A stretch of DNA of 64,000 nt. Origin: Heterodontus francisci (taxonomy: Eukaryota). Below the pieces are notes generated by a model. The model had not been told where the DNA came from, ran no database searches, and was given only the letters and a program-made list of their open reading frames with translations. Position numbers and translations under genes: made by a program. The stretch's first letter is position 1; each line of letters begins with the position of its first letter. This document shows positions 15,201 to 63,485 of the stretch, piece by piece. The stretch is taken from positions 28,434,283 to 28,498,282 of the forward strand of contig NC_090396.1 of NCBI RefSeq assembly GCF_036365525.1. Reading direction: 5' to 3'.

Positions 15201-18200
15201 CTTCCCAATCAAAACTTGCAATTCCCTCATAGCTCCGACCCAGATGTGGGTGCCCTGAAGCTTGAACATACAACTGTCAACATTGCAATGTAGGCAACAA
15301 GCTGCAACAACTATTAGTGCCACCTGATGCTGATAGCTAGAATTGCTATGAAAATACTATGAAGTGTAATATCATAACACAATGTGGATTCTAACAGCAA
15401 TACAAGTTCAGTAAGGCACCCCTTTAATCAGCTTATTCCTGAACTGCATTTTAAATGATGACATCTTCAACTGTTTTACTGAATTCATATTAATGACTCT
15501 ATGACTCTATGCAGAGTTTAACAGCTCAGAAGGATGCCATTCGGCCCATTGACAGCATGCCGCTCTCCACGGAGCTATGCAGTCAGTCTCACTCCCCGAT
15601 AGAGTCACAGAGATATAATATAAATCAAAAGCAAACAAATTATGTAGTTAACCTTCACTACAATAGCTACTTGGGAATGTACTGTTCACTGTGCTAGAGT
15701 GAGGTAAACAATAGAATGAGGACACACTAAAAAATGGTTTTTCGAGGGAAGTACTCCTTTTTTTTTATTCTTTCATGGGAATGTGAACATCGCTGGCAGG
15801 CCAGCATTTGTTGCCATCCTTAATTGCCCTTGCGAAGGTGGTGGTGAGCTGCCTTCTTGAACCACTGCAGTCCATTTGGTGTAGGTACACCCACAGTGCT
15901 GTTTGGAAGAGAGTTCTAGGATTTTGACCCAGTGGCAGTGAAGGAACAGCGATTTAGGATGATGTCCTACTTGGAGGGGAACTTGCAGATAGTAGTATTC
16001 CCATATGTCTGCTGCCCTTGTCCTTCTATATGCTAGGCGTTGCAGATTTGGAAGGTGCTGTCGAAGGAGGCTTGGCAAGTTGCTGTAGTGCATCTTGTAG
16101 ATGGTACACACTGCTGCTGCTGTGCGCCGGTGGTGAAGGGAGTGAATGTTTAAGGTGGTGGATGGGATGCCGATCAAGTGGGCTGCTTTGTCTTGGATGG
16201 CGTCAAGCTTCTTGATTGTTGTTGGAGCTGCACTCATCCAGGCAAGTGGAGAATATTCCATCACACTCCTGACTTATGCCTTGTAGATGGTGGACAGGCT
16301 TTGGGGAGTCAGGAGATGAGTTACTCGCTGCAGAATTCCCAGCCTCTGACCTGCTTTTGTAGCAATAATACTTTTATGGCTGGTCCAGTTCAGTTTCTGG
16401 TCAATGGCAACCCCAGGATGTTGATGGCAGGGGATTCAGTGATGATAATGTTGTTGACTGTTAAGGGGAGATAGACAGACTCTCTCTTGTTGGAGATGGT
16501 CATTGCCTGGCACTTGTGTGGCACGAATGTAACTTGCCACTTATCAGCCCAGGCCTGAATGTTGTCCAGGTTTTACTGCATGTGAACATGGACTGCTTCA
16601 GTATCTGAGGAGTCACGACTAGCACTGAAAACTGTGCAATCATCAGTGAACATCCCCACTTCTGAGCTTATGATGGAGGGAAGGTTATTGATGAAGCAGC
16701 TCAAGATGGTTGGGCCTAGGACACTACCCTGAGAAATTCCTGCAGCGATGTCCTGGGGCTTGGATGTTTGGTCTCTAACAACCATAACCATCATCCTTTG
16801 TACTAGGTATGACTCCAACCCGTGGAGAGTTTCCCCTGATTCCCATTGACTTCAGTTTTGCTAGGATGTTGATGCCATACTCGGTCAAATGCGGCCTTGA
16901 TGTCAAGTGCAGTCACTCTCACATCACCTCTGGAGTTCAGCTCTTTTGTTCAGGTTGGACCAAGGCTGTAATGAGGTCTGGAGCCATGTGGTCCTGGCGG
17001 AACCCAAAGTGAACACTGGTGAGCAGGTTATTGCTGTGTAAGTGCCGCTTGGCTGCGCTGTCGACACTTTCCACTGTCACCATCACTTGAGGCTCAACGT
17101 TCCCTTATTTAGCCTTCAGAAGACCTGCTGCTCAATGTTTCTCTAGACCTCCATTCACATCCCCCCAACAGAGACACAGTGGGAGAGAATGTGGCCTTCA
17201 AGAAAAAGTTATGAAGAACCCTGTACTACAAGACAGAGGGGAATGCACCAAAATATCACCCTGTATAAACTCCTGTGAACTATACTATTATTCATAGATC
17301 TACACTGTAGCAGTGTAAACCTGAAATGGTATTTTAATGTTAGTTCACACATGAAAGACACATTTAAATCTATCCCATATCCCATTGATGCACTACAGAT
17401 CAGTTAGTTTTTAAGTTATATCAATTTTAACAGCAACCCCTCTGTATGTTTTCTGGTGCATATTTTCAATCACCACGCACAGCATCCGTTGCTGAAATTT
17501 TTACCTATTTCATCTACGACAGCAATCATTTTTTCCAGTTCTTCAGGACAGATGTCTGGACAGTGTGTGAACCCAAAATAAATCAAGACCCACTGTCCAT
17601 GGTAGTCTTTGTCCGTCTTGGGCTGTCGTGTATGATCAATGAGTGAAAAGGGTCCTCCAAGTGCTGCCTTTCCAATACTTCGGGTCCGCTCCTTCTCAAT
17701 CTCTAAACAAAAGTCAATTAAAAAAAAAGATTGACACCATATCAGACAAGCACACCATGTATATCCCACAGCTTTAAACAAATTTTTAGGAATTGTTTTC
17801 TATGCTCTCAAATATACATACACATATGTATCTCCATTATAGATCTCAAAATAATGTATGTTGGGAACAAATGCACTTATTAGAAAACAGAACACTGACA
17901 TTGTAGGTGATCTTCAGTACATGTCAACCATTCTGTTCACCTTTTGTCAAATATCTTCTACACAAAACAAAAACTGATGCTAATAAGTGTGACAAGGAGC
18001 AGTCGCAGAGGCAATTTGACACTCTAAGACAAGTAGAAAACAAAGTGAAGCTTTATAAGTTGTGTGTGCTTAGGTCTCCCACATTGTCATGAATAGAACT
18101 TCTGTAGATGGGAAGCATTTCCCTGCCAGGAGGGAGGGAGGCCCAGCCCAGTTCCTCTGGGTAGTGTCCTAGGCCCAACCATCTTCAGCTGCTTCATCAA

Positions 18201-21200
18201 TGACCTTCCCTCCATCATAAGGTCAGAAGTGGGGATGTTCGCTGATGATTGCACAATGTTCAACACCATTCACGACTCCTCAGATACTGAAGCAGTCCAT
18301 GTCCACATGCAGCAAGACCTGGACAACATCCAGGCAAGGGGTGATAAGTGGTAAGTAACAATCGCGCCACACAAGTGCCAGGCATCTCCAACAAGAGAGA
18401 ATCTAACCATCACCCCTTGACGTTCAATGGCTTTACCATGGCCGAATCCCCCACTATCAACATCCTTAGGGTTACCGTTGATCAGACACTGAACTGGACC
18501 AGCCATATAAGTATTATGGTTACAAGAGCAGGTCAGAGGCCGGGAATTCTGCAGCGAGTAACTCACCTCCTGACTCCCCAATGTCGGTCCACCATCTACA
18601 AGGCACATGTCAGGAGTGTGATGGAATACTCTCCACTTGTCTGGATGGGTACAGCTCCAACAACATTCAAGAAGCTCGACACCATCCAAGACAAAGCAGC
18701 CCGCTTGACTGGCACCCCATTTACCACCTTCAACATCCACTCCCTCCACCACCGGCGCACAGTGGCAGCAGTATGTACCATATACAAGATGCACTGCTGC
18801 AATTCATAAAGGCTCCTTCGACAGCACCTTCCAAGCCCGTGACCTCTACCACCTAGAAGGACAAGGGCAGCAGACATATAGGAACACCACCACCTGCAAA
18901 CTCCCCTCCAAGCCACATATCATCCTGTCTTGGAACTATATCGCCGTTCCTTCACTGTCGCTGGATCAAAATCCTGGAACTCCCTTCCTAACCGCACTGT
19001 GGGTGTACCAACCCCACTGGACTGCAGTGATTCAAGAAGGCAGCTCACCACCACCTTCTCAAGGGCAATTAGGGATGGGCAATAAATGCTGGCCTAGCCA
19101 GCGACGCCCACATCCCACGAACGAATAAAATTAAACTATCACTCTCCACCTAGCATTCAATGGCTTCTGTGCAGACTTGAGTTCAGGTGGCTTCGTGGCT
19201 TCCCACCATCTCAGTGCCAGATGATGTATGGTGCAGGGAAACTACAAGGAGGCGTGGCCGCTAGGTGACGTATCCTGAAAATGCCAGTTTGTCCGCTGAA
19301 GATACCAAGCTCTAGCTCACCAGGAACTCTCTCAACCCCTCCACTGTCTCTAAATTGTCACAATGTTGGCCAACATCTAATACTGGATGAGCAGAAATTT
19401 CCTCCAACTAAATATTGGAAAGACCGAAGCGATTGTCTTTGGTCCCCACCACAAATTCCATTCCTCAGCCACCACCTCCATCCCTCTCCCTGGCAACCTT
19501 GGTGTCATACTTGACCCAAAGATGAGCAACTAACCACATGTCCACACCATCACTGAGACTGCCTATTCCCACCTCCGTAACATTGCCCGACTCCACACAT
19601 GCTTCAGCTCAACTGCTGCTGAAACCCTCATTCATGTCTTTGTTACCTCTGGACTCGATTGTTTCAACACATTCCAGATCGGTCTGACATTTTCCACCCT
19701 CTCTAAGCTTAAGTTCACCCAAAACTCTGCTGCTCATATCCTAACTCGCACCAGGTCCCATTCCCTGATCACCCCTTAGCTCACTGACCTCATTGGCTCC
19801 TGGAAAACAATGCCTTGATTTTAAAATTTTCAAATCACTCCATGGCTTGACCCTCCCCATCTCTGAATTCACCTCCAGCTGTCCAACCCCCCTGCAATTT
19901 GGCCCTTTTGCACACCCCAAATTTTAAATTGCTCCACCACTGGCAGCCAAGCCTTCAACTGCTGAGGCCCTAACCTCTGGAACTCCCTTCCTAAACCTCC
20001 CTATCTCTCTTTCTGCTGTTAAGACACTCCTTAAAATCTACCTCTTTGACCATGCTTTTGGTCATCTGCATTAATATCTCATGTGGCTCTGTGTCAGATT
20101 TTGTTAGATAATGCTCCTTGGGACCTGTGTTCCTGCTAAGCTGCACAGGTGCATGGTCACACAGTAGGTTGAAAGGTAGCACGCTGGCCTCATTCTGTGA
20201 GAAATAACCCATGTGCACGGCCGTGAAAATAAATTTAAAGGGACTGCGTACTGAAAAAACGGGCCGCAGAAAAGAACCAAACTTAAAGGAAGCATTGCTT
20301 CGGACTACAATGTTAAAGCGACAATATAAATGCAAGATGTTGTTGAGAATAATCATGGTAATTTTAAAGTGGCATATTAACCTGTAAATACAATATCCAT
20401 TCCTGTATTTTACTGGTATGCACTGACTCAAACAGTACCAAATGCTTCCTCCAAGCAGAAAGGATTCTATTGACCCTCCAGCACAAACAATAGTAAGTCT
20501 TTACAATAAACTGAAGAACAGACCATAATACAAAAGCAAAATACTGTGGAAACTGGAAATCTGGAGTGAACACAGAAAATGCTGGAAATACTCAGCAGGT
20601 CTGGCAGCATCTGTGGAGAGAGAAACAGAGTTAATGTTACAGGTCTGTGATCTTTCATCTGTTTCTCTCTCCACAGATGCTGCAGACCTGCTGAGTATAT
20701 CCAGCAATTTCTGTTTCTGTAAAAAGAACAGACTGTGTTTCTCTAGAAAGAAAGAAAAACGTGCATTTATGTTGTGCCTTTCACAACCACAGGACGTCCA
20801 AAGTGCTTTACAACCAATGAAGTACTTTTGAAGTGCAGTGTCTGTTGTAATGTGGGAAACACAGCAGCAAATTTGCACCCAGCAAACTCCCACAAGTAGT
20901 AATGTGATAACGACCCGATAATCTGCTTTAGTGATGTTAATCGAAGGATAAATATTGCCCAGAATGTCAGGCATAACTTCCCTGCTCTTCTTCGAAACAA
21001 TGCCATGGGATCTTCTACATCCAGGTGCCTCAGTTTTACATCTCATCCAAAAGACAGCAACCGCCAACAGTGCAGTAGAGGCATGCTACCTGACCCGAAC
21101 CCGACAGGGTTCAGGTCGGGTGGGGCCCATGTTCCGGGGCCAGCTTTCGGGCTTGGGTTGGGTCGGGCCGAGTCCAGGTCAAGTCGAGTCGGGTCGGGCC

Positions 21201-24200
21201 GGACACACACGGTAAGTGCTCTGCCGGTAAGTATTAAAACATTTTTTAAAAACTTACCTGAGCTGGGAGTCGGGACGAAATGGAGTCTGCGCAGTGAGAA
21301 AGTGACGTCACTATGACGTCAACGCGCATGCAATGCGGCTTCTTGCAGGTAGGATGTCAGGAAGGTAAGTAATGGGATGGTCGGGTCGGGTCGAGTAGTG
21401 GCGGGTTCGGGTCGGGTCGGGCTCGGGGCAAAATCAGAGGGACTCGGGCCAGGTCCGCTGTGGTTCAGTCGGGATCGGGTCAGGTTCTTTCTCCTGACCT
21501 AAAGCAGGCCTCTTTAGTGCAGCAATCACTCAGTGCTGCACTGGAGTCTCAGCCTTACTTTTGTGCTGAAATCCTGGAGCAGGGCTTGAATCCACAGAGG
21601 CAGGAGTGCTACCAGCTGAGCTACAGCTGACATTGCAATACCTTAATTTACAAATCAACTCACAGTTGAGCAGATTTGTGACTAAAGTGGTTATTTCACA
21701 ATTTGCTCCTCATACTGCTTTAAAACTTTGAAAAGTCCTTTAGATAGGAACATAGGAACAGGAGTAGGCCATTTTGCCCCTTGAGCCTGTTTTTGTTTTA
21801 TTCTTTCATGGAATGTGGGCATCACTAGCAAGGCCAGCATTTATTGCCCATCCCTAATTGCCCTTGAGAAGGTGGTGGTCAGCTGCCTTCTTGAGCCGCT
21901 GCAGTCCATGTGCAGTAGGTACACCCAAGATGCTGTTAGGAAGAGAGTTCCAGGATTTTGACCCAGCGATACTGAAGGAATGGCGATATAGTTCCAAGTC
22001 AGGATGGCGTGTGGCTTGGAGGGGAACTTGCAGGTGGTGGTGTTCCCATGCATTTGCTGTCCTTGTCCCTTTAGGTGGCAGAGGTCGTGGGTTTGGAAGG
22101 TGCTGTCTAAGGAGCCTTGGTGCGTTGCTGCAGTGCATCTTGTAGGTGGTACACACTGCTGCCACTGTGCATCGGTGGTGGAAGTATGAATGTTGTGGAT
22201 GGGATGCCAATCAAGCGGGCTGCTTTGTCCTGGATGATGTCGAGCTTCTTGAGTGTTGTTGGAGCTGCACCCATCCAGGCAAATGGAGAGTATTCCATCA
22301 CACTCCTGACTTGTGCCGTGTAGATGGTGGACAGGCTTTGGGGAGTCAGAAGGTGAGTGACTCACCGCAGGATTCCTAGCCTCTGACCTGTTCTTATAGC
22401 CACGGTATTTATATGACTTCTCCAGTTCAGTTTCTGGTCAATGGTAACCCCCAGGATGTTGATAGTGGGGGATTCAGTGAAGGTAATGCCATTGAATGTG
22501 AAGGGGAGATGGTTAGCTTCTCTCTTGTTGGAGATGGTCATTGCCTGGCACTTGTGTGGCACGAATGTTACTTGTCACTTATCAGCCCAAGCCTGGATAT
22601 TGTCGAGGTCTTGCTGCATTTCTACATGGACTGCTTCAGTATCTGAGGAGTTGCGAATGGTGCTGAACATGGTGGAATCATCAGCGAACATCCCCACTAC
22701 TGACCTTATGACTGAAGGAAGGTCATTGATGAAGCAGCTAAAGATGGTTGGACCTAGGACACTACCCTGAGGAACTCCTGCAGTGACGTTCTGGAGCTGA
22801 GATGATTGACCTCCAACAACCACAATCATCTTCCTTTGTGCTAGGTATGACTCCAACCAGCGGAGAGTTTTCCCCCTGATTCCCATTGACTTCAGTTTTG
22901 CTCGGGCTCCTTGATGCCATACTTGGTCAAATGCTGCCTTGATGTCAAGGGCAGTCACTCTCACCTCACCTCTTGAGTTCAGCTCTTTTGTCCATGTTTG
23001 AACCAAGGCTGTAATGAGGTCAGGAGCTGAGTGGCCCTGGCGGAACCCAAACTGAGCGTCACTGAGCAGGTTATTGCTAAGCAAATGCCACTTGATAGCA
23101 CTGTTGATGACACCTTCCATCACTTTACCGATGATTGAGACTACATTGATGGGGCAGTAATTTGCCAGGTTGGACTTGTCCTGCTTTTTGTGTACAGGAC
23201 ATACCTGGGCAATTTTCCACATTGCCGGGTAGATGTCAGTGTTGTAGCTGAACTCGAACAGCTTGGCTAAGGACGTGGCAAGTTCTGGAGCACAGGTCTT
23301 CAGTACTATTGCGGTAATATTGTCAGGACCCATAGCTTTTTCAGTATCCAGTGCCTTCAGTCATTTCTTGATATCACAAGGAGTGAGTCAAATTGGCTGA
23401 AGTCTGGCATCTGTGATGCTGGGGACTTCAGGAGGAGGTCGAGATGGATCATCAACTCGGCACTTCTGGCTGAAGATTGTTGCAAATGCTTCAAACTTAT
23501 CTGTTGCACTGATGTGCTGGCTCCCCCATCATTGAGGATGGGGATATTTGTGGAGCCACCTCCTCCAGTTAGTTGTTTAATTGTCCACCACCATTCACGG
23601 CTGGGCGTGGCAGGACTGCAGAGCATAGATCTGATCCGTTGCTTATGGGTTTGCTGAACTCTGTCTATCGCATTCTGTTTACGCAGTTTGACATGCAAGT
23701 AGTCCTGGGTTGTAGCTTCACCAGGTTGACACCTTATTTTGAGGTATGCCTGGTGCTGCTCCTGGCATGCCCTCCTGCACTCTTTATTGAACCAGGGTTG
23801 GTCTCCTGGCTTTGATGGTAATGGTAGAGTGGGGGATATGCTGGGCCATGAGGTTACAGATTGTGGTTGAATACAATTGTGCTGCTGCTGATGGCCCACA
23901 TCGCCTCATGAATGCCCAGTTTTGCATTGCTAAATCTGTTCGAAATCTATCCCATTTAGCATGGTGATAGTGCCACACAACACGATGGAGGGTCCTCAAT
24001 GTGAAGGCTGGACTTTGTCTCCATAAGGACTGTGCGGTGGTCACTCCTACCAATACTGTCATGGACAGATGCATCTGCAGCAGGCAGATTGGTGAGGACG
24101 AGGTCAAGTATTTTTTTCCCTCTTGTTGGTTCCGTCACCACCTGCCGCAGACCCAGTCTAGCAGCTGAGTTCTTTAGGACTCAGCCAGCTCAGTCAGTAG

Positions 24201-27200
24201 TGGTGCTACCGAGCCACTCTTGGTGATGGATATTGAAGTTACCCACCCAGAGTACATTCTGCACCCCTGCCACCCTCAGTGCTTCCTCCAAGTCATGTTC
24301 AACGTGTAGGAGTACTGAGTCATCAGCTGAGGGAGGGCGGTAGATGGTAATCAGCAGGAGGTTTCCTTGCCCATGTTTGACCTGATGCCACGAGACTTCA
24401 TGGGGTCTGGAGTCGATGTTGAGGACTCCCAGGGCAACTCCCTCCCAACTATATACCGCTATGCCACTGCCTCTGCTGGGTCTGTCCTGCCGGTGGGACA
24501 GGACGTACCCGGGGATGGTGATGGCAGCGGCTGGGACATTGTCTGTAAGGTATGATTCCGTGAGTATGACTATGTCAGGCTGTTGCTTGACTAGTCTGTG
24601 GGACCGGTCTCCCAACTTTGGCACAAGCCCACAGATGTTGGTAAGGAGGACTTTGCAGGGTCGACAGGGCTGGGTATGCCATTGTCGTTTTCGGTGCCTA
24701 GGTCGATGCCGGGTAGTCTGTCCGGTTTCATTCTGTTTTATTGACTTTGTAGCAGTTAGATACAACTGAATGTCTTGCCAGGCCATTTCAGAGGGCATTT
24801 AAGAGTCAACCACATTGCTGTGGATCTGGAGTCACATGTCGGCCAGACCAGGTAAGTATGGCAGATTTCCTTCCCTAAAGGACATTAATGAACCAGATGG
24901 GTTTTTACAACAATGGTTTCCTGGCCATCATTAGACTAGCTTTTAATTCCAGATTTATTAATTGAATGCAAATTTCACCTTCTGCTGTGGTGGGATTCGA
25001 ACCCATGTCTCCAGAGCAATACCCTGGGTCTCTGGGTTACTAGTCCAGTGACAATACCACTACGGTATCACCTCCCCCTGTTTTGCCATTCATTGAGATT
25101 ATGGCTGATCTGTGACCTAATTCTATATATCTGCCTTTCCCGTATATCCTTTAAGAAAAATCTATCAATCTCAGATTTAAAACTAGCAATTGATCTCCTA
25201 TCAATTGCTGTTTGTGGAAGAGATTCCAAACTTCTACCATCCTTTGCGTGCAGAAGTAGTTCTTAATTACACTCCTGAAAGGCCTGTCTCTAACTTTTGA
25301 GCTATGTCCCCTAGTCCTAGATTCCCCAAACAGTTGAAAGAGTTTCTCTCTATCTACCCTAACAGTTCACCTTAATAGCTTGAAAACTTTGATCAAATCA
25401 TCCCTTAACCTTGTAAATTCCATGGAATACAACAACATATATTTGTATAGCACCTTTGAAGTAATAAAACGTCCAAAGGCGCTTCACAGGAGCATTATAA
25501 AACAAAATATGACACCAAGCCACATAAGGAGATATTAGGTCAGATGACCAAAATCTTGGTCAAAGAGGTAGGTTTTAAGGAGCGTCTTAAAGGAGGAAAG
25601 AAGTGGAGAGGCGGAGAAGTGTAGGGAGGGAATTCTAGAGGCCTAGGCAGCTGAAGGCCTGGCCACCAATGGTGGAGCAATTAAAATCAGGGATGCTCAA
25701 GTGTCCAGAATCACAGAAGTGCAGATATCTCGGAAAGTTGTGGGGCTGGATTTTAAAATCAAGTTGTTGTTTGACCGGGAATAAACGTAGATCAGCAAGC
25801 ACAGGGGTGATGGGTGAATGGAACTTGGTGCAAGTTAAGACACAGGCAGCAGAGTTTTGGATGATCTCAAGTTTACAGAGGGTAAAATGTGGGAGACCAG
25901 CCAGGAGTGCAAACCTAGTTTTTGTAATCTCTCCTCATAACTTGACCCTTGGAGTCCAGGTATCATTCTGATAAATCTACACTGCACTCCCTCCAAGGCC
26001 AATACTTCCTTCCTGAGGGGTGGTGCTCAGAACTGAACACAGTACACCAGGTGTGGTCTAACTAGAACTTTTACCCTCTTGTATCCTAGTCCTTCAGATA
26101 TAAATCTTAGCATTCCATTAGCCTTTTTGATTATTTTCTCTGCCTGTCCATGACAGTTTAATGATCTATGCACATGGACCCCAAGTCTCTTTGGACCTCC
26201 ACTGTTTCTAGCTTTTCACCATTTTGAAAGTAGTCTGATCTATCCTTTGTAGGTCCAAAGTGATAAAAGTATGTTGTAAGCGAGACTTACTTTCTTCTTT
26301 TTCTTTCTTAAAGTATTTCATGACAGCCAACAGTGCTCCTCCTACAGCAAAAGTGATTGCTAAAGACTTCCATGTAACAGGCTACTAAGAAACAGAAAAC
26401 ATGTCTTAGATTTTAAAAAATAGGACTAAACAAACTATAAATAGTTGGCCAACTTTAAAATAATTCCAGTTTGATTTTGAACACCAGAGGCCTGAACATA
26501 GCTTGGAGCGTAAAAGTTATTTAGTAATGTTTTACTCAGAACCATCAGTTTGTACAATATTTTGAATTGTCACTGTTCAACTACAGTGTGTAACATTGTA
26601 AAGCAAAAGGATGTTAATGACCTGTCTTGTGCCTCACAGCAACATTTGCTCAATAGATTCTATGCAACAGATAAGAGTAAAACTGGTCCTTCCAAATAGC
26701 TAACTGCATTTGATTAAAAAAAGATTTGCATTTATATAGCACCTTTTACAACCTCGAGATGTCCTAAAGTGTATTCACTTTAGGAATGTAGTGAATGCAG
26801 CACTGCAGCCACACAGCTCCAGCGACCCGGGTTCGGTTCTGGGTACTGCCTGTGCGGAGTTTGCAAGTTCTCCCTGTGACCGCTTGGGTTTCCTCCGGGT
26901 GTTTCCTCCCACATGCCAAAGACTTCGGCTTGATAGGTAAATTGGCCATTGTAAAAAAATTGCTCCTAGTGTAGTTAGGTGGTAGGAGAATTGAGGGAAG
27001 GTGGGGATGTGAGAGGGAAAAAACGGGATTAATGTAGGATTAGTATAAATGGGTGGTTGATGGTCGGCGCGGACCTGTTGGGCCGAAGGGCCTGTTTCGG
27101 TGCTGTATCTCTCTATGATTCTATGACTCTAATTTGTGCACAACAAGCTCCCACAAACAGCAATGTACTAATGACCAGATAATCTGTTTTTGTGATGTTG

Positions 27201-30200
27201 ATTGAGGGATAAATATGGCCAGGACATGGGGATAACTTCCCTGTTCTTCTTTGAAATAGTGCCATAGGATCTTTTATGTCCACCTTACAGAGCAGACTGG
27301 ACCTCGGTCTAACATTTCATCCGAAAGACAGCACCTCTAACAGTGCAGGACTCCCTCAGTACTGCACTGGTGTGTCAGCCTAGATCTTGTGCTCAAGTCT
27401 CCAGAGTGAGACTTAATTAGTTCAAACATTTGATACAGTTACGCTCAAAGTACAGTAAGGTATGCCCAATCCTTAAAACAAAATGTGAGAGTAGATTTTA
27501 CTGTAGTTGGGCCTGGAGGAATATAGTGGAAAGTCGGGCAGGGAAGATTACATGCCTGTAAAGGAGTTCGGCTATGTAGCCACAGGAACAGAAAAATCTG
27601 TCCGATAATCTGGACAACTATTTGGCACAATCAACATTGCTATTTTATTCACCAAAATTAACCACATCCTCACTTACCCCACTCTTTTTAGTCCCACTGT
27701 TTGGTTTCTGTCCAGGTGGTGATGGAGGCATTGTACTGAAGGAGTGGAGATTGTGCATGGAGTATTTGGTAGACTTCCATATTGGGCAAAGGTCTTTACT
27801 GAACTGTACAAACATGAAAAGAAGAATGACCTTGCGATTAATGAGTACCTTTCACATACTCAAACCATTCTAAAGCACATTACAGCCAATTAATTACTTT
27901 TAAAGTGGAGTTATTGACATTTTGCACACAAACACGATTAACTAATTTGCGCTCGGCAAGATCACACAAATGAGCTAATGACTAGATATTCTGTTACTTT
28001 TAAAATGATGTTCGTTGAGGGATAAATATTGTCTAAGACACTAGGAGAACTCTTTGTTGAATAGGCCACAGGATCTTAAACATCCCCCTGAGCAGGCAGA
28101 CTAGGCCTTAGTTTATTGTCTCATCCAAGAGATGACACCTCTGACAATGCAGCACTCCCTCAGCAGAGCACTGGAGTCTCAGCCTAAATCTTGTGCTCAA
28201 GTCCTGGAGTAGTGCTTAAATCCACAAGCTTCTGAGTTAGAGGCAAGAGTGCTAAAGATTAAACACAAACCACAATGTTTACTTAAATATGCAAAATTTT
28301 AGCATGCAAATTCACATTACAAAAGAAAGATTTTTATTTTGCGTAGCCCTATACTAGCTGTAAACAGTTGGAGCCCCTGATTTATATGGTGGTCAGTCGT
28401 GAGTCATTCATATTGCCCATGGCATTAAACCTTGCCCCAATGAAGGTGCAGGAGAATAAATTAGAAACTACAGAAGCTTCAGCTAAATTCTCTGCTCCTG
28501 GAATGATTTTTGTTGGACTATTTTCATCTCAGTTTTCTACTCAATAACATCTTTGCATCATTTGTCATATTTCCTAGGTTGTAATTATATTTCACCACTG
28601 GTCTAAGACCAGTGCCCATGGAGTTCAATTGGCATGTCTCATGTTGTAGTGTGGGCTACTAATTGTACTCTGCCAGGCAAGGGAACAATTTTGTACACCT
28701 ATGCCTACAGGAAGCGCTCCAATCTCTGACTGACACTCTAGAAATATTAAAAAATACTTCACAGTGAGTGCTTTAGTTGCCTAAAAGGACCAAGAGACCA
28801 CCTGAACACCCTTTAAACTTCACTGCACACCACGATGGTGTTCGACTCCAAACCTTGCCCAGGCCAAGCACTGACCCTGCTGTCGTGTATTCTGGACCTG
28901 ACTCCAAAGTTATGCTACCACTTTCTCATCGCAGTTGCATTCCAAGAACACAAGAAATAGGAGTAGAAATAGACCATAGAAATAGACCATAAGCCCTTCG
29001 CGCCTGCTCCGCCATTCATTATGATCATGGTTGATCGTCCAACTCAGTAACCTGTTCCCGCTTTCGCCCCATACCCTTTGATCCCTTTAAACCCAAGAGC
29101 TATATCTAACTCCTTCTTGAAAACATACAATGTTTTGGCCTCAACTGCTTTCTGTGGTAGTGAATTCCACAGGCTCACCACTCTCTGGGTGAAGAAATTT
29201 CTCCTCATCTCAGTCCTGAATGGTTTACCCCGTATCGTTAGACTATGACCCCTGGTTCTGGACTCCCCCACCATCGGGAACATCCTTGTTCTACCCTGCA
29301 TCTACCCTGTCAAGTCCTGTTAGAATTTTATAGGTTTCTATGAGATCCCCCCTCACTCTTCTGAATTCCAGCGAATATAATCCTAACCGACTCAATCTCT
29401 CCTCATACGTCAGTCCCGCCATCCCAGGAATCAGTCTGGTAAACCCTCGCTGCACTCCCTCCAGAGCAAGAACATCCTTCCTCAGATAAGGAGACCAAAA
29501 CTGCACACAATATTCCAGGTGTGGCCTCACCAAGGTCCTGTATAATTGCAGCAAGACATCCCTGCTCCTGTACTCGAATCCTCTCGCTATGAAGGCCAAC
29601 ATACCATTTGTTTTTTTTACCACCTGTTGCACCTGCATGCTTACCTTCAGCAACTGGTGTATGAGAACACCCAGGTCTCGCTGCATATTCCCCTCTCTTA
29701 GTTTATAGCCGCTCAGATAATAATCTGCCTTCCTGTTTTTGTTACCAAAGTGGATAACCTCACATTTATCCACGTTATACTGCATCTGCCATGCATTTGC
29801 CCACTCACGCAACTTGTCCAAATCACCCTGAAGCCTCTCTGCATCCTCCTCACAACTCACCCTCCCACCCAGTTTTGTGTCATTTGCAAATTTAGAGATA
29901 TTACATTTAGTTCCCTCATCTAAATCATTAATATATATTGTGAATAGCTGGGGTCCTAGCACCGATCTCTACGGTACCCCACTAGTCACTGCCCCATCCC
30001 TGCGGTACTCCCCTAGTCACTGTCCGATCCCTGCGGTACCCCACTAGTCACTGCCCGATCCCTGCGGTACCCCCCTAGTCACTGCCCGATCCCTGCGGTA
30101 CCCCCCTAGTCACTGCCCGATCCCTGCGGTACTCCCCTAGTCACTGCCCTATCCCTGCGGTACCCCCCTAGTCACTGCCCGATCCCTGCGGTACCCCCCT

Positions 30201-31714
30201 AGTCACTGCCCGATCCCTGCGGTACCCCCCTAGTCACTGCCCGATCCCTGCGGTACCCCACTAGTCACTGTCCGATCCCTGCGGTACCCCACTAGTCACT
30301 GCCCCATCCCTGCGGTACCCCACTAGTCACTGCCCCATCCCTGCGGTACTCCCCTAGTCACTGCCCCATCCCTGCGGTACTCCCCTAGTCACTGCCCTAT
30401 CCCTGCGGTACCCCCTAGTCACTGCCCGATCCCTGCGGTACCCCCCTAGTCACTGCCCTATCCCTGCAGTACCCCCCTAGTCACTGCCCGATCCCTGCGG
30501 TACCCCCCTAGTCACTGTCCGATCCCTGCGGTACTCCCCTAGTCACTGCCCTATCCCTGCAGTACCCCCCTAGTCACTGCCCGATCCCTGCGGTACCCCC
30601 CTAGTCACTGCCCGATCCCTGCGGTACCCCACTAGTCACTGCCCAATCCCTGCGGTACTCCCCTAGTCACTGCCCCATCCCTGCGGTACCCCACTAGTCA
30701 CTGCCCAATCCCTGCGGTACTCCCCTAGTCACTGCCCAATCCCTGCGGTACTCCCCTAGTCACTGCCCCATCCCTGCGGTACCCCACTAGTCACTGCCCA
30801 ATCCCTGCGGTACCCCACTAGTCACTGCCTGTGACCATATGGCCCATTGAGCTTGCTCCGCCATTCAATACGATCATGGCTGATCTTGGGCTTCAATTCC
30901 ACTTTTCTGCTCGCTCCCATATCCCTTGATTCCCTGCGAGACCAAAAATCTATCTATCCCAGCCTTAAATGTAATCAATGATGGAGCATCCACAACCCTC
31001 TGGGGTAGAGAATTCCAAAGATTCACAACCCTTTGAGTGAAGTAATTTCTCCTCATCTCAGTCCTGAATGATTGACCCCTTATCCTGAGACTGTGTCCCC
31101 GTGTTCTAGATTCCCTGACCAGTGGGAACAATCTCTCAGCTTCTACCCTATCAAGCCAATATATTATATCATCCCCATTGATAATTAGTGGATTCACCTA
31201 GGAACAGCAGATTTCTAAGTGACTTTAGTAAAGACAAAACTGTGAACTTGTGATTGCCAATCATCCAGCCTTTGAATGACCTTTCTGGAAATTCCTGAAA
31301 TACATAAGCCAGACATAATAGATTACCATTATCAGTCCTTTTCCCATTCCTGTGCCTTGTGATGTGGCCATATTAGTTACTCAGGGGGATCAATCAATGC
31401 ACGTCAGCAACAGAGTTTCATAACTCACGTCATGATCCCATTCTATGCCTTGTTGTTGCTTTGCTGTGGGCAGCCTTTCTGAGATCCCCCTGTTCAGTGA
31501 CACTGCATGCTAAGTGTTTAGCGTTTCCTGGTCTGGTACTCACCACTGTGTTCGTGCACCGTGCGTTTGCTGCGATTAATCTCGGACGGTTGCATTGCCG
31601 TGCGGTGATTCTGCAGCAAAAAGAAGCCGCCCTGGCTGCTTCGCAGAAAACTTCCCAATTAAACCTTGTTGAAATAGCGTTCGTCCGTTTCCAGAGCTGC
31701 AGTAGCACCGCCAT
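6140..31714 (-). CDS. SCO1: SCO1, mitochondrial cytochrome c oxidase copper chaperone; join(31714-31544,27803-27678,26381-26291,17702-17505,13823-13731,12585-12470,6271-6140), 927 nt, 308 aa
   Basis: All seven exons have GT-AG boundaries and compatible phases. The product has an Arg-rich presequence, the TM helix [18 protein letters not shown], the FTHCPDICP CxxxC motif and the VDHT His ligand. Internal exon sizes 91/198/93/116 match the vertebrate SCO1 structure as I recall it. Confidence 0.95.
7703..8023 (-). mobile_element. tRNA-derived SINE, HE1/V-SINE type
   Basis: Minus strand GGCGGCACAGTGGTGCAGTGGTTAGCACTGCAGCCTCACAGCTCCAGGGACCCGGGTTCG (A/B boxes), CR1-like tail GGCCGAAGGGCCTG..GTGCTGTATCTC(TAAA)n; homologous to 14376-14678 and 26797-27130. 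Confidence 0.85.
8697..10699 (-). mobile_element. RTE-clade (BovB-like) LINE, 5'-truncated, with an uninterrupted RT and C-terminal ORF
   Basis: ORF 8765-10780 has [33 protein letters not shown] and C-terminal [17 protein letters not shown]. (GAAA)n tail; 9-bp TSD ATCAATATC at 8688-8696 and 10700-10708. Confidence 0.95.
11170..11945 (-). mobile_element. CR1 LINE 3' fragment
   Basis: ORFs 11296-11673 and 11736-11921 ([34 protein letters not shown]). Confidence 0.9.
12470..12585 (-). CDS. SCO1: SCO1 exon ([39 protein letters not shown]), 116 nt
   Basis: Acceptor ctctctag|AG, donor ATT|gtaagt; strong similarity to SCO1. Confidence 0.95.
13731..13823 (-). CDS. SCO1: SCO1 exon ([31 protein letters not shown]), 93 nt
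   Basis: Acceptor gttacag|AC, donor G|gtagg; contains the IDPxRD motif. Confidence 0.95.
14376..14678 (+). mobile_element. tRNA-derived SINE, HE1/V-SINE type
   Basis: GCAGTGGTTAGCACTGCAGCCTCACAGCTCCAGGGACCCGGGTTCGATTC ... GTGCTGTATCTCT followed by an A-rich tail. Confidence 0.85.
15765..17065 (-). mobile_element. 5'-truncated copy of the CR1/L2-group LINE family found full length at 21794-25076
   Basis: ORF fragments [18 protein letters not shown] and [27 protein letters not shown]; same 3' UTR as the full-length copy. Confidence 0.9.
17505..17702 (-). CDS. SCO1: SCO1 exon carrying CxxxC ([23 protein letters not shown]...[24 protein letters not shown]), 198 nt
   Basis: Acceptor tgtttag|AG, donor G|gtaaa; lies within ORF 17470-17781. 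Confidence 0.97.
18145..19130 (+). mobile_element. 5'-truncated copy of the same LINE family as 21794-25076
   Basis: [30 protein letters not shown]; 3' end GGGCAATTAGGGATGGGCAATAAATGCTGGCC...GAATAAAA. Confidence 0.9.
19420..20120 (+). mobile_element. L2 LINE 3' fragment
   Basis: Decayed [16 protein letters not shown]...QNSAAHILT...HWL...LWNSLP...FKTLLK motifs typical of the L2 ORF2 C-terminus. Confidence 0.75.
20535..20720. repeat. Inverted repeat of the Penelope-like terminal sequence
   Basis: GCTGGAAATACTCAGCAGGTCTGGCAGCATCTGTGGAGAGAGAAACAGA (~20581-20629) is followed by its near-reverse complement (~20658-20705). The same sequence ends the PLEs at 37710, 41208 and 46064. Confidence 0.8.
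20750..21632 (-). mobile_element. Deu-domain-type tRNA SINE (SacSINE1-like), interrupted by a hAT MITE
   Basis: tRNA-like head at ~21632-21580 on the minus strand; core GATAAATATTG...GCCATGGGATC...AAAGACAGCA; L2-like tail. Homologues at 26718-27415, 27825-28255, 41740-42158 and 50910-51260. Confidence 0.7.
21076..21514. mobile_element. hAT-type MITE with TCGGG subterminal repeats
   Basis: TIRs TAGAGGCATGCT / AGCAGGCCTCTT; 8-bp TSD CAGTGCAG (21068-21075) / TAGTGCAG (21515-21522); many TCGGGTCGGG repeats. Related copy at ~56694-57081. Confidence 0.8.
21794..25076 (-). mobile_element. Full-length ORF1-less LINE (CR1/L2 group): tRNA-derived head, then an APE endonuclease-RT ORF broken by a few frameshifts and stops
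   Basis: EN motifs [42 protein letters not shown] motifs [32 protein letters not shown]. 8-bp TSD CCTGTTTT at 21786-21793 and 25077-25084. Confidence 0.9.
24985..25076 (-). promoter_or_regulatory. tRNA-derived internal RNA Pol III promoter at the 5' end of the LINE
   Basis: Minus strand A-box-like TACCGTAGTGG (25067-25057) and perfect B box GGTTCGAATCC (25003-24993). Confidence 0.8.
26291..26381 (-). CDS. SCO1: SCO1 transmembrane exon ([30 protein letters not shown]), 91 nt
   Basis: Acceptor tcttagtag|CCT, donor A|gtaagt. Confidence 0.95.
26797..27130 (+). mobile_element. HE1/V-SINE-type SINE nested in a Deu-type SINE (26718-27415, minus)
   Basis: Homologous to 14376-14678; CTATGA-type tail; the host SINE resumes at ~27131. 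Confidence 0.8.
27678..27803 (-). CDS. SCO1: SCO1 coding exon 2 ([42 protein letters not shown]), 126 nt
   Basis: Acceptor ttcttcttttcatgtttgtacag|TTC, donor GGG|gtaagt; phase 0/0 and open; the S/P/K-rich segment precedes PVTW as in other SCO1 proteins. Confidence 0.8.
28979..29990 (-). mobile_element. Relatively young CR1 LINE 3' part
   Basis: ORFs 29291-29962 ([35 protein letters not shown]) and 29044-29301. Confidence 0.92.
29962..30829. repeat. 31-bp minisatellite, about 28 copies, derived from CR1 RT coding sequence
   Basis: Unit CCGATCCCTGCGGTACCCC(A/C)CTAGTCACTGC; TAGTCAC recurs every 31 nt (e.g. 30014, 30045). On the minus strand it encodes [10 protein letters not shown]. Confidence 0.95.
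30833..31155 (-). mobile_element. CR1 3' end hosting the 28979-30831 insertion
   Basis: ORF 30874-31197 ([16 protein letters not shown]...[13 protein letters not shown]); its tail continues at ~28945-28978; GACCATA is duplicated at both junctions. Confidence 0.8.
31544..31714 (-). CDS. SCO1: SCO1 first coding exon, mitochondrial targeting peptide (57 aa)
   Basis: Kozak gcaccATGG at 31714; [20 protein letters not shown]...ARCTNTV is R/A-rich and acid-poor; phase-0 donor GTG|gtgagt; locally CpG-rich. Confidence 0.8.
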
Positions 31715-31834: not shown

Positions 31835-32522
31835 TCTTTTCTTTTCTTTCATTTGGGCCTCCTTATCTCGAGAGACAATGGATACGCGCCTGGAGGTGGT
31901 CAGTGGTTTGTGGAGCAGCGCCTGGAGTGGCTATAAAGGCCAATTCTGGAGTGACAGGCTCTTCCACAGGTGCTGCAGAGAAATTTGTTTGTCGGGGCTG
32001 TTGCACAGTTGGCTCTCCCCTTGCGCCTCTGTCTTTTTTCCTGCCAACTACTAAGTCTCTTCGACTCGCCACAATTTAGCCCTGTCTTTATTGCTGCCCG
32101 CCAGCTCTGGCGAATGCTGGCAACTGACTCCCACGACTTGTGATCAATGTCACACGATTTCATGTCGCGTTTGCAGACGTCTTTATAGCGGAGACATGGA
32201 CGGCCGGTGGGTCTGATACCAGTGGCGAGCTCGCTGTACAATGTGTCTTTGGGGATCCTGCCATCTTCCATGCGGCTCACATGGCCAAGCCATCTCAAGC
32301 GCCGCTGACTCAGTAGTGTGTATAAGCTAGGGGTGTTGGCCGCTTCAAGGACTTCTGTGTTGGAGATATAGTCCTGCCACCTGATGCCAAGTATTCTCCG
32401 AAGGCAGCGAAGATGGAATGAATTGAGACGTCGCTCTTGGCTGGCATACATTGTCCAGGCCTCGCTGCCGTAGAGCAAGGTACTGAGGACACAGGCCTGA
32501 TACACTCGGACTTTTGTGTTCC
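31835..32522 (-). mobile_element. RTE/BovB-like LINE, short 3' copy
   Basis: Near-identical to 8697-9388; 11-bp TSD GCACAGCAAAT at 31824-31834 and 32523-32533. Confidence 0.95.
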
Positions 32523-33189
32523 GCACAGCAAATACACATGGAACAATATTCAAACAGCAACATTCTCCAGCTGGGTTGTTTTACTTTATTGTCCACATTA
32601 CAGCTTTAGTCAACACCAACTTGAAATTAAACACTAACACAGCGAACTAAAGTTGCATCCTATAAAACATTTGATAACATTGCTACATCGAGTAAATGGA
32701 ATTCCTAAATATATGCATTCGTTTTGCTATATATTGCACATATGAACTAATCACTGCATGCCCCACTATATATGTTCGAATTACAAAAATCGATCCCTAA
32801 AGGTATATTTATTTTAATCAGTGCTATTTCCACCATTTCTCGATTAGGAAACTAGGCAGATGGAGGGTCCATACGCCGATACATTTTGTAAATCTTTTTC
32901 CTTCTCAAAAGCAATACAAAATTAGGTTAAATTATCATTTCTTTTTAATAAACCGATCCGTATTTTTAAAAATTGTACCACAAATTACAATATTATTCAA
33001 CTGTATGAACATTGGCTGGTATCGAACCCAAAATGTCGAATATTTTCACAAAACTGGTACAGTTATTCCAATGAATTCCAATCATAGCCAGCTTTTTCCA
33101 CCTAAGGAAGGCCCTTGGAGCGTTGGGCTAATATGTGGGGATCTTGATAGTGGAAGACTTTCTGAGCCTTCAAAGAAACTTTAAAAGTG

Positions 33190-35311: not shown

Positions 35312-35839
35312 GTGAGTCAAGTGCGTCTGAGGCTGCTGCCGGCACTGGGTCGCTGGGAGCGGCTTCTCCTGCTGCTCAGAGGAGCTGGGATCAGGGCCCC
35401 ATAGACTGTGCATGTTAAGCTGCAGCATTAAATATGGAACTATGGTTGGGATATATGTATAAGTTAAATGGATCTGAATTACTAAGAGGGAATCAAGTTC
35501 AACTTCGCCGCTCCCGCATCACTGTTTAAAACCAGTTAACAAGATTGTTAATATATTTTTGTTGATTTTGGTTGGGGGGTAGGGTTCAGGCCACCAGAGA
35601 AACTCTCAGCGCATACTGCGTTCTTTAGCATCTACCAAAATGGGCAGAGAGAGTCAGGATTGTGCCTTTGTTTCTGGAGTATCCTTTGCTGTTGATGCAA
35701 ATTCCTTGAAATAAATCACAACTAATTCCTTCACCCAACAAGATAGATGTAGGGGGGGAAAGGAGACTGCAATTTTACAAACCAGGTTTACATTTTAGAA
35801 CTCTGCTTTTCTCTATCTTTTCTCCCCTGGTCTAGTCTC

Positions 35840-37710
35840 TTCCCACCTACATCTGTGACTCTTCTGACGCCCTACGTCATTTTAACAATTTCCAGTTTCC
35901 TGGCCCCAACCACCACCTCTTCACTACAGATGTCTAATCTCTCTACACCTCCATCCCCCACCAGGACGGTTTGAGGGCTCTCTGCTTCTTCCTTGAACCG
36001 ACCCCCAACCATTCTCCATCCACCACCACCACCCTTCTCTGCCTGGCTGAACTTGTTCTCACATTGAACAACTTCTCCTTCAACTCCAGTCATTTCCTTC
36101 AAGTAAAAGGGCTTGTTCTGGGTACCCGCATGGATTCTAGTTATGCCTGTCTTTTTGTGGGATATGTTAAACATTCCTTGTTCCAGTCCTACTCAGGCCC
36201 CCACCCCAACTCTTTTTTTTCCAGTACATTGATGACTGTATCAGTGCCGTTTCCTGCTCCCACCCCGAACTGGAAAACTTTATCAACTTTGCTTCCAATT
36301 TCCACCCTTCTCTCACCTTGACGTGGTTCATCTCCGACACTTGCCTTCCCTTCCCTTCCTCAACTTCTCTGTCTCCATCTCTGGCTGTCTACTAATATTT
36401 ATTATAAGCCCACTGACTCCCACAGCTACCTAGACTACACTTCACACCCTGCCTCCTGTAAGGACTCCATTCCATTCTCCCAGTTTCTCCGATTCCGACG
36501 CATCTGCTCTGATGATGCAACCTTCCATGACAGCGCTTCTGATATGTCTTCCTTTTTCCTCAACCGAGGATTCTCCCCACAGTGGTTGACAGGGCCCTCA
36601 ACTCCGTCCGACCCATTTCCCGCACCTCTACCCTCGCCCCTTCCCTTCCCTCCCAGAACCATGACGGGGTTCCCCTTGTCCTCACTTTCCACCCCACCAG
36701 CCTCCACATCCAAAGGATCATCCTGCAACATTTCTGCCACCTCCAGCGTGATGCCACTGCCAAATACATCTTCCCCTCCCCTCCCCTGTCAGCATTCCAA
36801 AGGGATGTTTCCCTCTGCAACACCCTTGTCAACTCCTCCATTACCCCCCACACCTTGCCCCTTTCCCACAGCACCTTTCCATGCAATCACAGGAGGTGTA
36901 ATACCCACCCTTTTACCTCCTCTCTCCTCACTATCCAAGGCCCCAAACACTCCTTTCAGGTGAAGTGGTGATTTACTTGTACTTTCAATTTAGTATACTG
37001 TATTCGCTGCTCTAATGTGGTCTCTACATTGGGGAGACCAAACGCAGATTGGGTGACCGCTTTGCGGAACACCTCCACTCAGTCCGAAAGCATGACCCCG
37101 AGCTTCTGGTTGCTTGCCATTTCAACACACACACCTGCTCTCGTGCCCACATATCTGTCCTGGGTTTGCTGCAGTGTTCCGGTGAACACGATAGCTCGAG
37201 GAACAGCATCTCATTTACCTATTAGGCACACTACAGCCTGCTGGTCTGAACATTGAGCTCAGTAATTTTGGAGAATGACAGGGCCCCCCTTTTTATTATT
37301 ATTTTTTCTTTTTTATTTGTTTTATTTTAGTTTGTTTCATAATTTTTTTTACCATGTGCCTACCCACTTTTTTTTTCATGTTTGTTCTTTGGGCCAGGGC
37401 TGTTCATTTTTCTGTCAATTAACACCCTCTCTGCACTAACGCTTTGTCTTTCAGCACACCATTCACATACCATTTGCCTTGGCTCCATGACCTTCTGGTC
37501 AGTTATTCTCTGTGACCCTGAGTCCTATCAGCACCTTCCCTTTTGTTATCTCTTGCCTCACCCCTGCTTTATTTGCTTAAAACCTATTACATTTCTAACA
37601 TTTGCCAGTTCTGAAGAAGGGTCACTAACCTGAAACGTTAACTCTGCTTCTCTCGCCACAGATGCTGCCAGACCTGCTGAGTATTTCCAGCATTTCTTGT
37701 TTTTATTTTA
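35840..37710 (+). mobile_element. Penelope-like retroelement (RT plus GIY-YIG), 5'-truncated and degenerate
   Basis: LAELVLTLNNFSFNSSHFLQVKG, YIDD, IPFSQFLRFRRICS, PLVLTFHP, YIGETKRRLGDRFAEHL. Confidence 0.9.
37607..37643 (+). ncRNA. Minimal type I hammerhead ribozyme motif in the PLE terminus
   Basis: AGTT-CTGAAGA-AGGGTCACTAACCT-GAAAC-GTT^-AACT: CUGANGA core, stem II, GAAA, palindromic ACGT stem III, stem I AGTT/AACT. Confidence 0.65.
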
Positions 37711-61384: not shown

Positions 61385-62424
61385 GTAATTTAAGGTTACA
61401 TCCATATACAGTGGTGTATCTTTATTTTTGGTTTCCAATATAGAAAAATAAATTTTGAGCCTCTAATAAATACTATTTTTTAATTCCCGAATGCATTGTT
61501 GAAAACACCAGTTTTCTTTTTTTAAGCAATGATGTTTCATGCATTTTTCTTAAGACTGGGCACGTCTTTCATAAAGGCATTGCCCTTTCTTAATTAATTC
61601 ACTGTCTGAAACTTCCTATTTTGGTTTAAATACCAGGAACAGGTTATCTTTCTGTATTCATTGTTCAGCCTCACAATTTCTGGCTCTGTGGTATTCTGTT
61701 AATAAAATGCATATCATGCACTATTTAGTAAAGTTATATTTAGGACATTAGTCTTTAAAGTGTTGTTAGACAATAACTCATTTAGACATCATAAATTGCA
61801 GGAGTAATACATAGAATAATGTATTAATTTTTGACAATAATTATGTAGGCAATAAATACTAATTTCCTAGGGAAACTTACCTATGAGAGAGTAGTTGCCT
61901 TCTTTGTTTGATTGTGTTGGTTAGATTTCTTTACTGTACCTCTAGGAATATAGAGGATAAAGCTGAACCACAGGGCATAAAGGAAAACTCCACTTTCAGT
62001 CACCATGATAAAAAAAAACTCTAATCTCTCTCATAGTGCTGTTTCTGCGCACTCAATAAGAAGTGGTATCGTAAATAGTAGATGGGAGCAAAAAGTTTCA
62101 AAAGGACAGATAGATTGAGTGAGTGGGCAAAAATGTGGTAGCTGGAGTTCAAGTGGGAAAGTGTGAGGTCATCCACTTTGGACCTAAGAAAGACAGATCA
62201 GAGTATTTTCTAAATAGGGAGAAGCTAGAAACTGCGGATGAGTAAGATTTAGGGGTTGAAGTACAAAAATCACTAAAAGCTAGTGGGCAGATAAAAAAGT
62301 AATTAAAAAGACCATTGGGATGTTGGGCTTTCTCTCAGGGCTGGAATATAAATGGGTGGAAGTTACATTACACATGTACAGACTTGGCTTTTATTTCCAT
62401 GAGTATAGGCGAAAGAGATGAATT

Positions 62425-63485
62425 CCAGAGGTGAGATGTGAGTGACTGCCCTTGATATCAAAGCAGCATTTGAGCGAGTATGGCATCAATGAGCTCTAGC
62501 AAAATTGAAGCCAATGGGAACCAGGAGAAAAAGTCTCCACTGGTTGGAATCATACCTAGTGCAAAGGAAGATGGTTGTGGTTGTTGGAGGACAATCATCT
62601 CAGCCCCAAGGCATCACTGCAGGAGTTCCTCAGGGTAGTGTCCTAGGCCCGAACGTCTTCAGCTGCTTCATCAATGACCTTTCTCCATCATAAGGTCAGA
62701 AGTGGGGATGTTCGCTGATGATTGCACAGTATCCAGTATCATTCACGACTCCTCAGATACTGAAGCAGTCCGTGCCATCATGCAGCAAGACCTGGATAAC
62801 ATTCAGCTTGGGCTGATAAATGACGAGTAACATTTGTGCCAGACAATTGCCAGGCAATGACCATCTCCAACAAGAGAGAATCTAACCATCTTCCCTTGAC
62901 ATTCAATGGGATTACCATCGCTCAATCCCCCACTATCACCATCCTGGGGGTTACCATTGACCAGAAACACAATTGGACCAGCCACATAAATACTGTGGCT
63001 ACAAGAGCAGGTCAGAGGCTGGAAATTCTGCAGTGAGTAACTCACCTCCGGACTTCTGAAAGCCTGTCCACCATTTACAAAGCACAAGTCAAGGGTGTGA
63101 TGGAATACTCTCCACTTGCCTGGATGGGTGCAGCTCCAACAACAGTCAAGAAACTCGACACCATCCAGGACAAAGCAACCCGCTTGATTGGCACCCCATT
63201 CACCGCCTTCAGCATTCAGTCACTTCTCCACTGGCACAAAGGGACAACAGAGTGTACCATATACAAGGTGCACTGCAGCAACTCACTGAGATTCCTATGA
63301 CAGCACCTTCCAAATCTGCAACCTCTGCCACCTAGAAGAACAAAGGCAGCGGATGCATGGGAGCGCCACCACCTGCAAGTTCCGCTTTAAGTCACACACC
63401 ATCCTGACTTGGAGCTATATTGCTGTTGCTTCACCGTCGCTGGATCAAAATCCTGGTACTCCCTCCCTAACAGCACTGTAGGTGT
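62425..63485 (+). mobile_element. Internal/3' fragment of the LINE family of 21794-25076
   Basis: [42 protein letters not shown]. Confidence 0.88.

Follow-up and report, generated by a model that had tools for sequence, protein, structure and literature searches.

Why should a gene that encodes a reverse transcriptase lack, on its sense strand, the T runs at which RNA polymerase III (Pol III) stops? The question is raised by a 3.3-kb element on the minus strand of a 64,000-nucleotide stretch of the Heterodontus francisci genome (contig NC_090396.1, positions 28,434,283 to 28,498,282; the whole stretch is called the window below). The original prediction had noticed this lack and read it as selection for passage of Pol III. 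We find that the window copy is a decayed member of an abundant family of jumping genes encoding their own copying enzymes, and that the depletion of T runs is real, family-wide and specific. Because the element also carries a tRNA-derived head with A and B boxes ahead of its terminator-free sense strand, end-to-end transcription by Pol III is likely, and the family is probably an autonomous long interspersed element (LINE) with a single open reading frame (ORF) transcribed by this polymerase.

In 5′ to 3′ order, the element comprises a tRNA-like head, a ~220-nt body, a single 975-codon frame for endonuclease and reverse transcriptase, and a tail (Table 1); this frame is the sole ORF, and there is no ORF1. 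Dispersed copies, 5′ truncation and a fixed 3′ tail are further features typical of LINEs. Our full-length set comprises 42 copies out of 69 loci, the remainder being split or truncated, and these copies differ by about 3.3% from the column majority. Together with a companion short interspersed element (SINE), the family makes up 8.2% of 664 kb sampled, window included, from this 6.0-Gb genome, and contigs from four sequencing runs (four organisms) span all 30 bins of the element stretch. The tRNA-like head is the family's only 5′ end and integral to the unit. Among loci chosen by the head, 36/39 extend through to the element 3′ end; among 29 chosen by the endonuclease alone, 28 reach the body or head upstream, 16 reach +1 and one is cut at 419, with no alternative shared 5′ end detected in these 29 by similarity to the reference. 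That a SINE merely came to lie ahead of a LINE by chance is ruled out by these continuous loci (36/39 and 28/29) and by the target-site check. The window copy was inserted within an older CR1-type 3′ end, whose tail looks like the CR1 tails of PMC7245038 (Fig S5), and the empty-site joint 21788-25101 is present in public contigs.

Table 1. Features of the element and of related copies in the window (positions of the window; percentages for the older copies as noted).
Feature	Position	Strand	Remarks
Full-length element copy (head, body, one ORF, tail)	21794..25076	-	about 9% from closest sister copies
Target-site duplication, 8 bp, 5′ copy	25077..25084	-	sequence
Target-site duplication, 8 bp, 3′ copy	21786..21793	-	sequence
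tRNA-Thr-like head, 20-nt hairpin inserted in variable region	24985..25076	-	alignment to fetched tRNAs
A box (predicted)	25057..25067	-	two substitutions in window copy (damaged); pattern fits 37/42 copies
B box (predicted)	24993..25003	-	intact in window copy; pattern fits 37/42 copies; starts 64 nt after A-box start
Body, shared with companion SINE	24760..24984	-	upstream AUGs and early AATAAA (24954-24959); not a Deu domain
In-frame AUG-GCC-UAG, candidate start with leaky stop	24778..24786	-	window copy has TGG at stop position
Basic N-terminal leader, in frame with enzyme	24652..24777	-	sub-lineage variants
Apurinic-type endonuclease domain	23950..24651	-	Pfam PF03372/PF14529 below cut-off; aligns to homolog P0043 from its residue 11
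Reverse transcriptase domain	22575..23360	-	PF00078, E 5e-30; stops and frameshifts break window copy elsewhere
Family stop codon of 975-codon frame	21854..21856	-	copy alignment
3′ tail shared with companion SINE: GAAT repeats, variable T run, about 10 A	21794..21867	-	copy comparison
AATAAA about 40 nt before 3′ end	21840..21845	-	41/42 full-length copies
Older 5′-truncated copy	15763..17073	-	83%
Older 5′-truncated copy	18150..19130	+	86%
Older truncated copy	62412..63475	+	85%

Recounting confirmed that 21794-25076 holds no sense run of four or more T (T4, seen as A4 on the plus strand); plus-strand T4 runs are present as predicted, at 15 rather than about a dozen. The predicted counts for the sister copies were reproduced (none in 18145-19130 and 62425-63485, one in 15765-17065, at 16628-16631). 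The absence of T4 from the window copy compares with 5.6 runs in mononucleotide shuffles (p 0.002) and, for the coding part, with 3.5 in synonymous-codon shuffles (p 0.03). The 42 full-length copies contain 21 T4 runs in total, 6 of them at or just beyond the 3′ tail; internal T4 is absent in 31, while A4 runs number 10-18 in each. No internal TTTT window is common to more than 10% of the 42, so that the consensus, which the prediction had proposed to check, has no family-wide sense T4. Only four TTT are shared within the frame, every one an in-frame Phe codon. T4 increases solely with decay (0.14 to 1.26 per kb), and the 115 columns that shifted among 48 older copies have brought no new shared T run.

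Other LINEs far exceed the family in T runs. We compared 12 family copies with the longest of the RTE loci (10/24) and of two CR1 families (11/25 and 10/24), and obtained 0.14 T4 per coding kb in the family vs. 1.25 in RTE and 3.9 and 5.2 in CR1. The RTE has 9x more T4 although its T content is nearly the same (20.9% vs. 20.3%). Sense T4 sites shared by copies number 4, 12 and 8 in the RTE and CR1 families, as anticipated from the neighbouring RTE and CR1 copies. Out-of-frame TTT stands at 0.15 of its level in synonymous shuffles in the family vs. 0.73 in RTE and 0.89 and 1.20 in CR1. Among 55 outside relatives with open frames >1.2 kb (drawn from 80), T4 ranges from 1.6 to 17.4 per kb and the T3 ratio from 0.75 to 1.25, vs. 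0.44 in the family; none of these 55 has an A/B-box head. TTT is the rarest trinucleotide of the family after dinucleotide correction (0.59), and neither A4 nor C4 runs are depleted. Generic causes such as homopolymer slippage, frameshift avoidance or an A-rich bias were rejected, since other LINEs or other bases would be affected and are not.

The depletion extends to weaker signals. According to the available text of Orioli et al. (PMC3141230), T3VT, TVT3 and T2VT2 are partial Pol III terminators, and isolated T3 and T2GT2 are nearly inactive. Three unbroken natural frames of the family contain 0, 1 and 3 such terminator-like motifs or T4 runs vs. 8.6-9.6 expected, numbers reached by only 1, 3 and 23 of 2000 shuffles. 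Two shared T2VT2 sites persist in the family; the intact frame L076 has none of the active type. Phe itself is scarce, at 2.0% in the family vs. a mean of 5.1% (lowest 2.3%) in 57 full-length homologs of the 120 matches listed. The proposed test of TTC over TTT at Phe codons did not discriminate, the TTT share of Phe codons (0.24) being close to the TAT share of Tyr codons (0.20). The purge is as would be expected if source copies were selected for read-through by Pol III, a reading that the family-wide lack of T4 and the deficit of out-of-frame T3 and non-canonical terminators all appear to support.

The original prediction presupposed a Pol III promoter. Putative Pol III-type A and B boxes are present and selectively conserved in the family, their patterns fitting most full-length copies (Table 1). 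Among copies with 8% divergence or more, deviations affect the box positions in 11/151 cases (7.3%) vs. 244/1417 (17.2%) in the rest of the head (p 0.001), and the sole lineage shift within the B box keeps the consensus purine. The A box starts about 10 nt from the element 5′ end, which is the usual SINE geometry. Of eight distinct tRNAs compared, all Thr or Lys, tRNA-Thr gave the best alignment to the head; neither ARAGORN nor Rfam called the head, and low-threshold ARAGORN hits on outside relatives proved to be noise. Head and body together fold with a z of -1.9 over 331 nt, the separate parts not being significant. At the other end, AATAAA is found in 86/91 young copies. The 79 scorable tails have T4 or longer directly before the A run in 12 and T2 or longer in 23, most having one T; this is the only place in the element where T4 is common. 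The tail resembles those of polyadenylated Pol III (T+) SINEs, a likeness that is only suggestive because T runs lengthen in ageing T+ SINE tails by A-to-T drift after insertion (available part of PMC8466645).

The whole frame is under purifying selection. Lineage shifts are mostly synonymous in the endonuclease, the middle, the reverse transcriptase and the C-terminus; in the endonuclease they are 17 synonymous and 9 non-synonymous, vs. 67 and 290 among singletons. Unbroken natural frames of 916-990 codons exist in the family, and an apparent shared frameshift at column 1270 was an artefact of the reference copy. In the leader, sub-lineage variants outside CpG are synonymous in 3 cases and non-synonymous in none, and shared deletions are all of 3 nt; the five shifts between old and young copies are all non-synonymous. 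The first shared in-frame AUG past the UAG is codon 285 (~23927), downstream of the endonuclease. As the selected endonuclease and leader precede it, translation should begin no further downstream than the first leader codon, and the only usable AUG for the frame is that of AUG-GCC-UAG, immediately ahead of the leader. Eight other shared AUGs lie upstream, which disfavours plain scanning. The UAG has become a sense codon in 25/107 copies, via three variants of at least 5 copies each, two of which carry further shared diagnostic changes; a similar replacement pattern occurs in 0/89 non-coding triplets and 2/883 codons elsewhere. From this we infer initiation at the AUG of AUG-GCC-UAG followed by readthrough, with a local advantage for loss of the stop. 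Alternatively, a non-AUG start within the leader may be used.

The favoured scheme is as follows. TFIIIC would bind the A and B boxes and Pol III would initiate about 10 nt ahead of the A box. Terminators would be removed by selection acting on source copies, because a truncated RNA would lose the 3′ tail needed by the reverse transcriptase. The RNA would end at the T run of the tail or at the first flanking T run, with polyadenylation at AATAAA possible, as in T+ SINEs. The same Pol III RNA is likely also translated, which is the least certain step: ribosomes would enter internally, initiate at the AUG that closes the body and pass the UAG by readthrough, so that little enzyme would be made. 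Internal deletions of the LINE would have given rise to SINEs on more than one occasion. The complete proposition, an "autonomous SINE" in which a protein gene is transcribed by Pol III, its uncapped 3.3-kb RNA is translated via internal entry and stop readthrough, and the arrangement has been kept for long in shark evolution while spawning SINEs by simple deletion, is one on which we regard the balance as even.

Several observations weigh against this scheme. Set against dinucleotide shuffles, which give 2.7 T4 runs, the absence of T4 from the window copy is marginal (p 0.056), and in the same three unbroken frames T4 alone is as low in 168, 220 and 380 of 2000 synonymous-codon shuffles, which is not significant. 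The predicted depletion relative to codon-preserving shuffles is hence weak for T4 alone in any one lineage, because few T4 are expected; the statistical power comes from out-of-frame T3 and non-canonical terminators. T-rich 5-mers are also reduced, though less so, in the RTE of equal T content (0.6), which cautions against over-reading, and the loss of conserved Phe is not significant (13/33 retained vs. 55% of other residues, p 0.10). The copies are related by descent, so that the family is about one data point and, being one lineage, does not provide many independent tests of the purge. Clear target-site duplications are rare (9/42 copies, loose matches). The in-frame UAG is kept in the majority of copies, and the sequence 3′ of it fits only in part that of known leaky stops. 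Folding of the body is no more stable than that of shuffled sequences (z 0.2 and -0.55), giving no structural backing for an internal ribosome entry site. The transcript data are assembled contigs, which are uninformative on start, strand, level or cap, and the T runs of the family's tails may reflect the post-insertion A-to-T drift described in the available part of PMC8466645.

Three other explanations were weighed. Labour might be split, Pol III supplying the uncapped template RNA and copies within host genes, read through by Pol II into capped transcripts, supplying the enzyme, which would act in trans. This would explain the boxes, the terminator purge and the many full-length copies without translation of an uncapped RNA, and would suit the heavy representation of the family in contigs from runs presumed to be of RNA. 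However, purifying selection on the frame and the spread of stop-loss sub-lineages are easier to understand if the protein serves the RNA that encodes it, and a Pol II message would suffer from the early AATAAA sites and the upstream AUGs; we consider this arrangement unlikely. We give the same low weight to the idea that a normal Pol II LINE acquired a SINE, which now serves as its 5′ untranslated region and Pol II promoter, and that the poverty in T runs is relict or an accident of composition. In its favour, transcription by Pol II is part of the definition of LINEs (PMC3531059, available text), template switching often swaps SINE modules (PMC4824008, likewise in part), T4 alone is marginal against codon shuffles and the TT dinucleotide is itself depleted (0.81). 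Yet the RTE of equal T content has 9x the T4, A and C runs are unpurged, the purge follows the hierarchy of Pol III terminators, the boxes are selectively conserved, and internal poly(A) signals are tolerated, with four shared AATAAA/ATTAAA sites in the family vs. 0 in RTE, 0 in CR1a and 1 in CR1d (a weak difference).

Finally, the 3.3-kb unit could be a giant non-autonomous SINE with a dead ORF, mobilised by a partner LINE, in keeping with the fact that most copies have no in-frame AUG opening the frame. The excess of synonymous shifts between lineages over the endonuclease, middle, reverse transcriptase and C-terminus largely refutes this; unbroken frames of 916-990 codons exist, and a head-less partner was not found in the sampled loci. 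We regard such a unit as very improbable.

The companion SINE is the element minus its coding middle, with the end of the body joined directly to the tail. The body-tail joints of short elements fall at more than one junction, the main one being present in contigs of all four runs. A tree of 35 heads intermingles those of SINEs and LINEs, and its well-supported branches force at least 3 label changes; this implies that head and ORF stayed linked in old as well as young lineages and that SINEs were made or remade repeatedly. The first event could have been either capture of a SINE head by the LINE or derivation of the SINE from the LINE. Locus L158 (sample C 185819-186291) is a young one-off deletion joining element position 341 to 3140, a SINE-like derivative seen shortly after it had formed.

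How does the element relate to known systems? Its companion has the layout of the SINE2 elements with LINE-type tails in cartilaginous fish (SacSINE1, CmiSINEs with L2-2_CM, HE1 with HER1; available parts of PMC5499810 and PMC3747384), namely a tRNA head with A and B boxes, a body and a LINE tail. In contrast to these, the element has a selected 975-codon enzyme frame, and the partner LINE shares head and body, not the tail alone; in the accessible portions of Luchetti 2017 and Ohshima 2013, shark SINE/LINE pairs share tails only. Being 3.3 kb long, the element is neither short (<700 bp) nor non-coding, a description that suits only the companion. The body is without the published Deu, UCON3 and Meta sequences. 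Identity with Deu or SacSINE1 was rejected: the published Deu alignment (hagfish paper supplement) is unlike the body by eye, and two Deu core motifs are unmatched in 21794-25076. The comparison used only the 131-142 nt Deu core; we do not file the companion as SacSINE1, because its body differs from that core. A resemblance to AmnSINE2 is possible.

In its protein the element resembles CR1/L2 LINEs with a single endonuclease-reverse transcriptase ORF, having the same domain order and length, a basic leader, many 5′ truncations and a GAAT-type tail. Unlike the element, homologs of this group have a Met ahead of the endonuclease, 5% Phe, ordinary T runs and no A/B-box head. Homologs share 36-49% identity with it, fragments at 67-83% include a whale shark protein, and identity to the genome's own CR1 is 35-37% and to RTE 29%; the CR1/L2 grouping rests on these identities and stops short of a named clade. 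The endonuclease had no match among PDB sequences. Three outside homologs, P0013, P0007 and P0043, have unusually low Phe (2.3-3.4%) and could be examples of this design from other animals.

Bipartite derivatives of LINEs (RIME, NARTc, Bov-A and Vingi; available part of PMC5786205) are likewise short partners arising by internal deletion of an autonomous LINE. Their parent is held to be Pol II-transcribed, with the tRNA head added later; here the parent already carries the head, so that deletion gives a SINE directly. Persaeus is reportedly another short partner, derived from the CR1 Zenon (PMC6740152). The T+ SINEs B2, Dip and Ves have a similar 3′ end of AATAAA, a T run or its rudiment and a short A tail, with T runs that lengthen in short tails (PMC8466645, in part), but are non-coding and a tenth the length. 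L1Tc and R2, with their hepatitis delta virus (HDV)-like ribozymes (PMC3383444, in part), set a precedent for a LINE RNA that lacks a cap, has a 5′ structure like that of a tRNA and is proposed to be translated through internal ribosome entry. Their RNA, unlike that proposed here, is released by cleavage of a Pol II or Pol I transcript; no HDV-type ribozyme was matched by Rfam in 21500-25600 at E up to 10.

We found no description of a coding LINE with a Pol III head in the literature searched, which included the available portions of PMC7245038, PMC4824008, PMC5753468 and PMC10468316; Repbase, Dfam, the original DeuSINE paper and the supplements of PMC5499810 and PMC3531059 lay outside this search and may hold the sequence. 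In the definitions of SINEBase, LINEs are Pol II elements, and SINEs are short, transcribed by Pol III and not autonomous (PMC3531059); SINEs are also said to be elements that 'cannot encode a protein' and to arise by addition of a head to a deleted LINE (Kojima 2018; PMC5786205), all as given in the accessible text. The split between the two classes in these papers thus rests on polymerase and coding capacity, and the element appears to be both. If this is true, a natural Pol III messenger RNA would account for several percent of a vertebrate genome, against the textbook view that Pol III makes no mRNA, and some conserved SINE bodies would be leftover translation elements of such parents. Translation of Pol III RNA in vivo, the origin of SINEs and the role of conserved SINE bodies become testable questions.

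Some minor observations concern other copies and the rest of the window. At L059 and L091, the first head bases are tandemly duplicated over a short length at the 5′ insertion junction. Loci L465-L468 represent a single 5′-truncated family copy that lies within a CR1 fragment and was amplified when the segment was recently duplicated (~99% identity including flanks); a putative sister family with frames of 927-928 codons was discarded as segmental duplicates of one truncated copy. A very young RTE-type LINE, used as a control above, lies at 8705-10909 (-), with a 3.2-kb open frame and copies 99-100% identical genome-wide, and fragments of RTE-type LINEs are found at 31838-32523 and 40637-41083. 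Repeats of 300 bp at 7711-8008 and 14376-14675 are in opposite orientation and 96% identical, with an older copy near 26799-27112, and a C-rich tandem repeat of period ~62 bp occupies 29962-30829. The 1.9-kb repeats at 35811-37708 and 46063-47890 form an inverted pair of 78% identity, the translation of which we take to be Penelope-like. Lastly, exons at 37929-38654 (+) and 60736-61443 (+) are 82% identical and encode a calcineurin-like phosphoesterase domain (PF00149), apparently as tandem paralogs of one host gene.

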